Shown in pieces: positions 39,854 to 53,270 of a stretch of 64,000 nt of DNA (its first letter is position 1; each line of letters opens with the position of its first letter). The notes below the pieces were generated by a model. It did no database searches and was not told the DNA's origin. It saw only the letters and a list, made by a program, of their open reading frames with translations. This DNA is from Candidatus Heimdallarchaeota archaeon (GTDB taxonomy: Archaea > Asgardarchaeota > Wukongarchaeia > Wukongarchaeales > JBHIFL01). Where the stretch lies: positions 1 to 64,000 of the forward strand of contig JBHIFL010000005.1 of assembly GCA_046761065.1 (NCBI GenBank). The letters are read 5' to 3'. A program made the position numbers and the translations under genes.

Positions 39854-40136
39854 AGTAGAGCGGATTATTTTGGAAAAGAGATCGAAAGAGAAGACGTAAA
39901 AGCAAGAAAAGCAATTATAAAGATTTAAGTAAAGATAATACTTTTCCTACTACTACTTTTCCGCTTTACCATTTCCTTGTATGAAGGTTTCTCTTACACT
40001 TTGAATATGATCGTCCGCACTATTTTAACATCAGATCCTATTATCTTTCTCATTTCAGAGGGTTTCATCCGTTTCGATAGATTTATTTGCTCACCAGTAG
40101 GTTGTTTGGGGTAGTAGGATATCCCGGCTCTACGGC

Positions 40137-40294
40137 GGGCCTGTAAGGGTTCTTATTCGTTAGGGGATGAACTCCAGGAAGCTCAGCTAGGTAGAGCGGC
40201 GGGCTCTTAACTCCTATGGGAGAGACCCGTTGGTCAGGGGTTCAACAAAATCTTAAGAGCTGCTTTGGTTTGGGAAATCCCCTCAGGCCCGCCA
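40137..40294 (+). tRNA. tRNA-Lys(CTT) with three introns: 9/10 (40146-40180), 37/38 (40210-40224), 59/60 (40247-40277)
   Basis: GGGCCTG/CAGGCCC + GCCA; GCTC/GAGC; GCGGG-CTCTTAA-CCCGT; AGGGG/CCCCT; BHB or relaxed BHB at each junction. Confidence 0.9.
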
Positions 40295-44609: not shown

Positions 44610-44744
44610 TGGTGCGGTCGCCGGGAATTTCAGAAGGAACTGCTTTTTCCATTCTTTCGAACCCGGGTTGCCGGCGTTCTTCAGAGACGGGAGCTCCGTT
44701 CTCTCTGGCAGGCCGATGTCCTATCCAGACTAGACTACGACCGC
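44610..44744 (-). tRNA. tRNA-Gly(GCC) with two introns: 37/38 (44677-44705), 59/60 (44627-44655)
   Basis: GCGGTCG/CGACCGC + ACCA; TCGGC-CTGCCAC-GCCGG; CCGGG-TTCGAAT-CCCGG after splicing. Confidence 0.92.
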
Positions 44745-51588: not shown

Positions 51589-51737
51589 TGGTGGGCGGGC
51601 CCGGATTGCCAGAAATTTGCGCAATGCAAACTTCTTTTGAACCGGGGACCTCCTCCGTGTCCCGGGAGAGCATCGTGGATCTGTCACGGTATTTCTCCAG
51701 TCAGGGAGGCGTCATAACCGGGCTAGACCACCCGCCC
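51589..51737 (-). tRNA. tRNA-Val(GAC) with two introns: 36/37 (51659-51699), 59/60 (51606-51635)
   Basis: GGGCGGG/CCCGCCC + ACCA; CCTCC-CTGACAC-GGAGG; CCCGG-TTCAAAT-CCGGG after splicing. Confidence 0.9.
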
Positions 51738-53023: not shown

Positions 53024-53160
53024 TGGTGGACCGGCCGGGATTTTCGGAAGGAAAAATAAAGTCTTTCTTTCACTTGAACCCGGGGCATAAGGCCTTCAAT
53101 CGAGATGAGATGAGGTCTCCTCGGTGCGAGCGAGGCGATCTACCACTGATCTACCGGCCC
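53024..53160 (-). tRNA. tRNA-Ala(CGC) with two introns: 45/46 (53087-53116), 59/60 (53041-53072)
   Basis: GGGCCGG/CCGGTCC (G3:U70) + ACCA; CCTCG-CTCGCAC-CGAGG; BHB-like motifs. Confidence 0.92.
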
Positions 53161-53192: not shown

Positions 53193-53270
53193 TGGTGGGC
53201 CCGCGGGGCTTCGATCCCCGGACCTCACGGTTATCAGCCGTGCGCTCTAACCAAGCTGAGCTACGGGCCC
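53193..53270 (-). tRNA. tRNA-Ile(GAT), intron-less, atypical T-loop ATCGAAG
   Basis: GGGCCCG/CGGGCCC + ACCA; CACGG-CTGATAA-CCGTG; CGGGG/CCCCG. Confidence 0.95.

Follow-up and report, generated by a model that had tools for sequence, protein, structure and literature searches.

A three-intron tRNA-Lys(CUU) gene in an Asgard archaeon with a predicted intron at the uncommon site 9/10

A tRNA-Lys(CUU) gene made of four exons and three predicted introns was found in the window, the 64,000-nucleotide stretch of Asgard archaeal DNA analysed here. The best explanation, which we hold with high confidence, is that the gene is functional, that its first intron is an ordinary protein-spliced intron at site 9/10, and that this intron is a gain of the lineage that has been kept. 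This reading draws on sequence comparison and predicted folds. It makes the gene a well-supported, conserved case of a splice signal that draws on the 5' acceptor strand and the D-stem of the tRNA itself, so the precursor would pass through a non-cloverleaf fold before maturing. The genome is a 4.42-Mb draft of 234 contigs with 42% G+C, estimated as 91% complete with 8% contamination, and the host class is represented by three species in the genome collection.

The gene and the splice motif of its first intron

The unspliced gene gives no call with ARAGORN or with the Rfam tRNA model. After removal of all three introns, ARAGORN calls tRNA-Lys(ctt) on the 77-nt product, which has a standard cloverleaf with every stem intact and with U8, A9, G10, A14, G18-G19 and A21 present. 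Both programs therefore miss the only tRNA-Lys(CUU) candidate of this genome in its genomic form, which matters for completeness estimates of Asgard bins. The gene adjoining it has no exact protein match on record. Coordinates are collected in Table 1.

Table 1. Features of the tRNA-Lys(CUU) gene and related genes of the host genome (plain numbers are window positions; C15, C2 and C20 are other contigs of the genome)
Feature	Position	Strand	Remarks
TATA-like box, A/T-rich, putative	40081..40090	+	inferred from sequence reading; leader would be about 25 nt
tRNA-Lys(CUU) gene	40137..40294	+	4 exons, 3 introns, discriminator G, encoded CCA; ARAGORN on spliced product
Exon 1	40137..40145	+	acceptor 5' strand GGGCCTG (G1-G7), U8, A9; 9/9 identical in three orthologous loci
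Intron 1, 35 nt, site 9/10	40146..40180	+	strict motif: 4 central, 3 outer, 6 inner pairs
Exon 2	40181..40209	+	D-arm, G26, anticodon stem 5' strand, C32 to A37, anticodon CTT
Intron 2, 15 nt, canonical 37/38	40210..40224	+	central CTCT:GGAG (one G.U), outer 7 bp, inner 1 bp
Exon 3	40225..40246	+	A38, anticodon stem 3' strand, variable loop, T-stem 5' strand, T loop 54-59 (TTCAAC)
Intron 3, 31 nt, T loop, best read 59/60	40247..40277	+	relaxed motif
Exon 4	40278..40294	+	T60, T-stem 3' strand, acceptor 3' strand, discriminator G, CCA
Intron 1 motif, outer helix	40137..40139 (GGG, nt 1-3) with 40182-40184 (CTC, nt 11-13)	+	G-C, G.U, G-C; both strands exonic
Intron 1 motif, central 4-bp helix	40140..40143 (CCTG, nt 4-7) with 40175-40178 (intron CAGG)	+	four Watson-Crick pairs
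Intron 1 motif, 5' bulge TAA	40144..40146	+	predicted cut after 40145
Intron 1 motif, 3' bulge AAG	40179..40181	+	predicted cut after 40180; last base is G10 of the tRNA
Intron 1 motif, inner helix and variable hairpin top	40147..40174 (GGGTTC 40147-40152 with GAACTC 40169-40174)	+	5 Watson-Crick pairs and 1 G.U
Two EndA paralogues	C15:7589-7843 and C2:24654-24914	-	EndA alpha on C15, putative structural paralogue on C2
tRNA-Lys(UUU) gene	C20:38408-38551

The original prediction described a bulge-helix-bulge motif at 40137-40184. Every element of it lies at the predicted coordinates, and a script verified the geometry: two 3-nt bulges on opposite strands, 4 bp apart, with an outer helix of 3 bp and an inner helix of 6 bp. 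The motif had been called perfect, which holds for its canonical geometry but not for its flanking helices, where two pairs are wobble pairs. The proposed boundaries also stand, in that cutting after the second base of each bulge excises 40146-40180 and joins U8-A9 to G10. The predicted junction after removal of intron 1 reads ...GGGCCTGTA joined to GCTCAGC..., with the joint between A9 and G10.

Since 40145 and 40180 are both A, removing 40145-40179 (site 8/9) would give an identical mature sequence, and the same ambiguity is present in the orthologs described below. Only in the 9/10 register, however, do both cuts follow the second base of a 3-nt bulge, with the two bulges 4 bp apart, and the bulge rule that selects it also yields the correct anticodon loop for intron 2. 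An intron at 8/9 is therefore highly improbable, and the site is given as 9/10 throughout.

The pairing seldom arises by chance. When intron 1 was shuffled with its dinucleotides preserved and the exons fixed, four central pairs together with an inner helix of at least 6 bp were reached in 167 of 200,000 shuffles. A scan of the whole genome (4.4 Mb) for the same geometry ahead of an intact D-arm returned the tRNA-Lys(CUU) gene and 17 weak matches, which have AT-rich "acceptors" and inner helices of 2-3 pairs and are chance hits.

Two other kinds of archaeal intron were compared with intron 1. A C/D box guide RNA of the kind encoded by the tRNA-Trp intron of Euryarchaeota has a C box RUGAUGA, a D box CUGA and a guide segment. 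Intron 1 holds only a C-like GGGATGA with one mismatch, the D box is absent, and the C-like sequence is kept in neither L156 nor L157, two of the orthologous loci. As for a mobile homing-endonuclease intron, intron 1 is only 35 nt long, and BLAST found no second copy of it in the genome. An origin by copying or transposition was rejected as well, the sole extra BLAST match being a chance 20-nt hit on contig C4 inside a coiled-coil reading frame.

Intron 3 has the weaker motif, with three of four central pairs (one A.G), five outer and five inner pairs. It is placed at 59/60 because the intron-less T loop of Atabeyarchaeia-2 reads TTCAACT, and because the tRNA-Lys(CUU) gene of Atabeyarchaeia-1 has an intron at exactly this site.

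Conservation, splicing machinery and function

A metagenome scan for tRNA-Lys(CUU) genes with an insert at 9/10 returned ten loci. Orthologs had been proposed as a check on the prediction, and three of these loci (L159, L156 and L157) are orthologous to the window gene and have an intron in the identical position. Synteny with the window extends over the whole 10 kb of L159, at 81-84% nucleotide identity; L156 and L157 are syntenic at 66-70%. Intron 1 is 35, 33 and 33 nt long in L159, L156 and L157. The exons beside it are nearly invariant, with exon 1 identical at 9/9 positions in all three and exon 2 at 27-29 of 29, and intron 1 matches at 30/35, 20/35 and 21/35 positions, respectively.

Within the intron, conservation follows the motif. 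The outer pairs, the central pairs and the AAG of the 3' bulge are invariant across the four orthologs, the 5' bulge is TAA or TAT, and the hairpin top varies freely. The inner helix goes from GGGTTC:GAACTC through GGGTTC:GAACCC to GGGTAC:GTACCC. One GU pair has become GC and, in a compensatory exchange, one U-A pair has become A-U, which amounts to few independent events in four sequences. As far as four sequences can tell, the pattern is the one expected if selection maintains the fold of a spliced intron.

The 9/10 intron is absent from the tRNA-Lys(CUU) genes of other Asgard archaea, namely Atabeyarchaeia-1, Atabeyarchaeia-2, G004, G005, G011, G045, G012/G042/G051 and G028/G047. This distribution points to a gain within the present lineage, after its split from the other sampled Asgard lineages, followed by retention. 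The gain can be dated only roughly, because a tRNA-Lys(CUU) gene was not found in G001 and G002, two genomes of the same order. 

The Atabeyarchaeia genes have an extra intron of their own, which lies in the 3' strand of the D-stem at about 23/24, as against 9/10 here. It is about 36 nt long in both, sits between ...GGTAGA and GCG, and is missed by tRNAscan-SE (PMC11291895). The coordinates of the two genes (Atabeyarchaeia-1 L151, G013:C1:304457-304624; Atabeyarchaeia-2 L154, G023:C1:320687-320799) match Supplementary Data 4 of PMC11291895. The orthologous genes of L156 (Ga0114923_10030860) and L157 (SDBU01057444.1) are 186-187 nt long and, besides the 9/10, 37/38 and T-loop introns, have a fourth insert, which is about 28 nt long, has approximate boundaries and follows the anticodon stem's 3' strand.

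These comparisons also bear on whether the gene works at all. If it were a decaying pseudogene or had taken up an unspliceable insertion, AAG codons would be read by tRNA-Lys(UUU) or by another gene. A tRNA-Lys(UUU) gene does exist (Table 1) and the genome is a draft, and both facts speak for this reading. A pseudogene would not be expected to keep its exons identical or nearly so in relatives whose flanks are 66-84% identical, while its introns diverge with their pairing kept; nor would its spliced product be expected to have every cloverleaf stem and conserved base in place. In addition, no second tRNA-Lys(CUU) candidate was found in this 91% complete draft bin, although an intron-less copy may have been missed in it. 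We thus give the pseudogene almost no credence and continue with a functional gene.

The genome also encodes what the predicted splicing would need. Two EndA paralogues were found. The predicted catalytic one, EndA alpha (195 aa), has as its best match 3P1Z_B, the catalytic subunit of the Aeropyrum pernix heterotetramer (E 7e-41), and the solved structures nearest to it are alpha subunits from Aeropyrum, Sulfolobus and Pyrobaculum. Its closeness to crenarchaeal alpha subunits includes the region aligned to the Aeropyrum specific loop. The second paralogue (214 aa) has no catalytic His that we could see and was read by eye as a putative structural subunit. Together they fit a predicted heterotetrameric alpha/beta enzyme in an Asgard archaeon. 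Enzymes of the heterotetrameric type are known to cut non-canonical sites (PMC5829648, PMC3241643). An RtcB ligase (534 bits) and a full archaeal RNase P RNA are encoded as well. At the gene level, then, a predicted broad-specificity endonuclease and an RNA ligase are both present.

Competing folds and the order of maturation

The motif of intron 1 was predicted to sequester the 5' acceptor strand and the D-stem. This is borne out by the pairing, which uses nt 1-7 and the 5' strand of the D-stem (nt 11-13), and the motif is therefore incompatible with both the acceptor stem and the D-stem. The motifs of the three introns, on the other hand, use separate bases and can coexist with one another. 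Introns near the 5' end in Crenarchaeota, such as those at 3/4, likewise compete with the acceptor stem.

Which fold is favoured in prediction depends on the length of the transcript. For transcripts ending at 40184, 40200 or 40235, the motif core lies within the predicted minimum-energy fold. The full precursor has a predicted energy of -58.4 kcal/mol without constraints, -54.5 kcal/mol with the acceptor and D stems forced and -52.4 kcal/mol with the motif forced, and its predicted minimum-energy fold contains the acceptor stem and not the motif. Cutting of a full-length precursor would therefore depend on kinetics or on capture of a minor conformer by the enzyme.

Based on these folds, maturation may proceed as follows. 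The first 48 transcribed bases would fold with nt 1-3 paired to nt 11-13 and nt 4-7 paired to the four intron bases that directly precede the 3' bulge, while the remaining bases of intron 1 form a hairpin, leaving two 3-nt bulges 4 bp apart. The alpha/beta endonuclease would cut after the second base of each bulge, and RtcB would join A9 to G10. Introns 2 and 3 could be removed in the same way, as their motifs share no bases with that of intron 1 and can form alongside it. The RNA would then refold, with nt 1-7 pairing to nt 66-72 and nt 10-13 to nt 22-25. Early, possibly co-transcriptional cutting of intron 1 is likely in this model, since the motif rules out the cloverleaf and its core is the most stable fold predicted for the nascent transcript.

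The original prediction went further and held the order to be obligatory, so that intron 1 must leave before the cloverleaf forms and before RNase P cuts the leader. The shared bases of the two folds speak for this, as does the motif core being the predicted minimum-energy fold of the nascent transcript to about +100 nt. Yet the two forced folds are only about 2 kcal/mol apart in prediction and may interconvert, and the outer helix forms without any leader, which would allow RNase P to cut the conformer with the acceptor stem first. In the window sequence, the leader can lengthen the outer helix in the predicted fold (40130-40136 with 40186-40195), which would favour an order; however, L159 has only a weakened form of this extension and L156 and L157 have none, and it was set aside as not conserved. 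We consider an obligatory order possible but lean against it. Early cutting of intron 1, whatever its order relative to RNase P, is the reading we prefer.

Introns at site 9/10 in other archaea

The original prediction did not count 9/10 among the known non-canonical intron sites. That novelty does not hold, as at least 28 further tRNA genes with the strict motif were found in public archaeal genomes of several phyla, along with metagenome contigs. The public genomes, one per species, were scanned with a pattern for tRNAs that start with GGGC and have a GCTY D-stem, which gave at least 120 matches. Loci were kept if they had the strict 9/10 motif and if ARAGORN called a tRNA from the predicted first base only after removal of the intron, which left the at least 28 loci; bacterial matches of the pattern failed this tRNA test.

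Among the matches listed, 17 are Bathyarchaeia, with the intron mostly in tRNA-Arg(CCU) and tRNA-Met. The intron is found in tRNA-Met in two Nitrosopumilales, in Nitrosothermus koennekii and in one Asgard archaeon of the Hodarchaeaceae, again among the matches listed. The list also holds two Hadarchaeota, one soil "Crenarchaeota" bin and one each of Altiarchaeota (in tRNA-Lys UUU), Aenigmatarchaeota, an unclassified archaeon and a contig that is probably mis-binned. This last contig (L057, DASQZS010000223.1, 5 kb, from a Candidatus Acidoferrum bin) has an archaeal-style tRNA gene with two introns, one of which is a strict 9/10 intron, and is probably archaeal. The metagenome scan also yielded tRNA-Lys(CUU) genes unrelated to the present one that have just one intron, at 9/10. 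Three of them (L155, L160 and L161) are clear cases, and a fourth unrelated locus (L164) is ambiguous, as ARAGORN finds a tRNA in its unspliced sequence too. A narrower pattern run on 400 genomes of the phylum found only the present gene, a result of little weight because the pattern fixed the D-loop length and missed the tRNA-Met of the Hodarchaeaceae.

Introns at 9/10 in other archaea are built like the one described here. Their 5' bulge consists of U8-A9 and the first intron base, and their 3' bulge has G10 in third place. The outer helix pairs nt 1-3 with nt 11-13, and the central helix pairs nt 4-7 with the 3' end of the intron. They differ in having unrelated sequences and lengths of 19-37 nt, and most are in other isoacceptors. 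For these reasons, the 9/10 introns of different archaea look like independent gains, as far as their sequences indicate.

The reviews of archaeal tRNA introns that were consulted do not name site 9/10, and a literature search with the site spelled out in words gave nothing relevant. The reviews give other positions followed by "etc." and call the positions "seemingly random". For Thermoproteales and other Crenarchaeota, the sites given are 20/21, 22/23, 25/26, 29/30, 30/31, 45/46, 53/54, 56/57, 59/60 and, as an extreme, 3/4 (PMC4090602). Intron 1 resembles the introns of that study in its splice motif, in the heterotetrameric alpha/beta type of EndA (here predicted) and in the presence of several introns per gene. 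It differs from them in its site, which is unnamed there, in its Asgard host and in an outer helix whose two strands (nt 1-3 and nt 11-13) are both exonic. A 2026 census of tRNA introns in Asgard archaea, the same phylum, reported one to several introns in most tRNA genes, many of them missed by standard annotators, with repeated gains at sites able to form the motif and a few intervening sequences in "acceptor stem and junctions". Intron 1 thus adds to the known class of non-canonical, protein-spliced tRNA introns, and its site is uncommon but recurrent across archaea. It leaves current knowledge of archaeal tRNA splicing unchanged, and the site recurs widely in public genomes.

A broader and more speculative idea is that tRNAs with a GGG start and a G10-CUC D-stem are pre-adapted to insertion at 9/10, which would make this site a hot spot, and that introns there force a refolding that orders maturation. 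We regard this as rather unlikely. If it were true, the outer helix would already be present in the exons, and any hairpin ending in four bases complementary to nt 4-7 would be spliceable at once. This would explain independent gains in the Asgard, Bathyarchaeia, Nitrosopumilales, Hadarchaeota, Altiarchaeota and DPANN lineages, and the refolding from splice motif to acceptor stem would be the step that orders tRNA maturation. The GGG...GCUC shared by all 9/10 examples was rejected as evidence for a hot spot, as the argument is circular: the search pattern required GGG...GCUC.

Other tRNA genes of the host genome were recovered in a rough census anchored on the acceptor stem, which returned 31 tRNA-like genes, several multi-intron genes among them being mis-solved. 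Two apparent "10/11" introns on contig C1 turned out to be D-loop introns. About half of the recovered genes in this rough census have a 27-34-nt intron at a 59/60-type site. The T-loop intron of the tRNA-Lys(CUU) gene has close relatives at the same site in the tRNA-Lys(UUU) gene and in an elongator tRNA-Met gene (C143:2658-2794, minus strand), and the two tRNA-Lys genes are 82% identical over the 3' part of the gene, T-loop intron included. This pattern suggests a single family of 59/60-type introns that has spread among genes. Four more tRNA-type genes lie in the window on the minus strand, at 44613-44744, 51592-51737, 53075-53160 and 53196-53270. By putative isotype, one is an intron-less tRNA-Ile(GAU) and one has two introns and the anticodon loop GCC (Gly); the other two are interrupted and tRNA-like, with Rfam scores below or near the cut-off.
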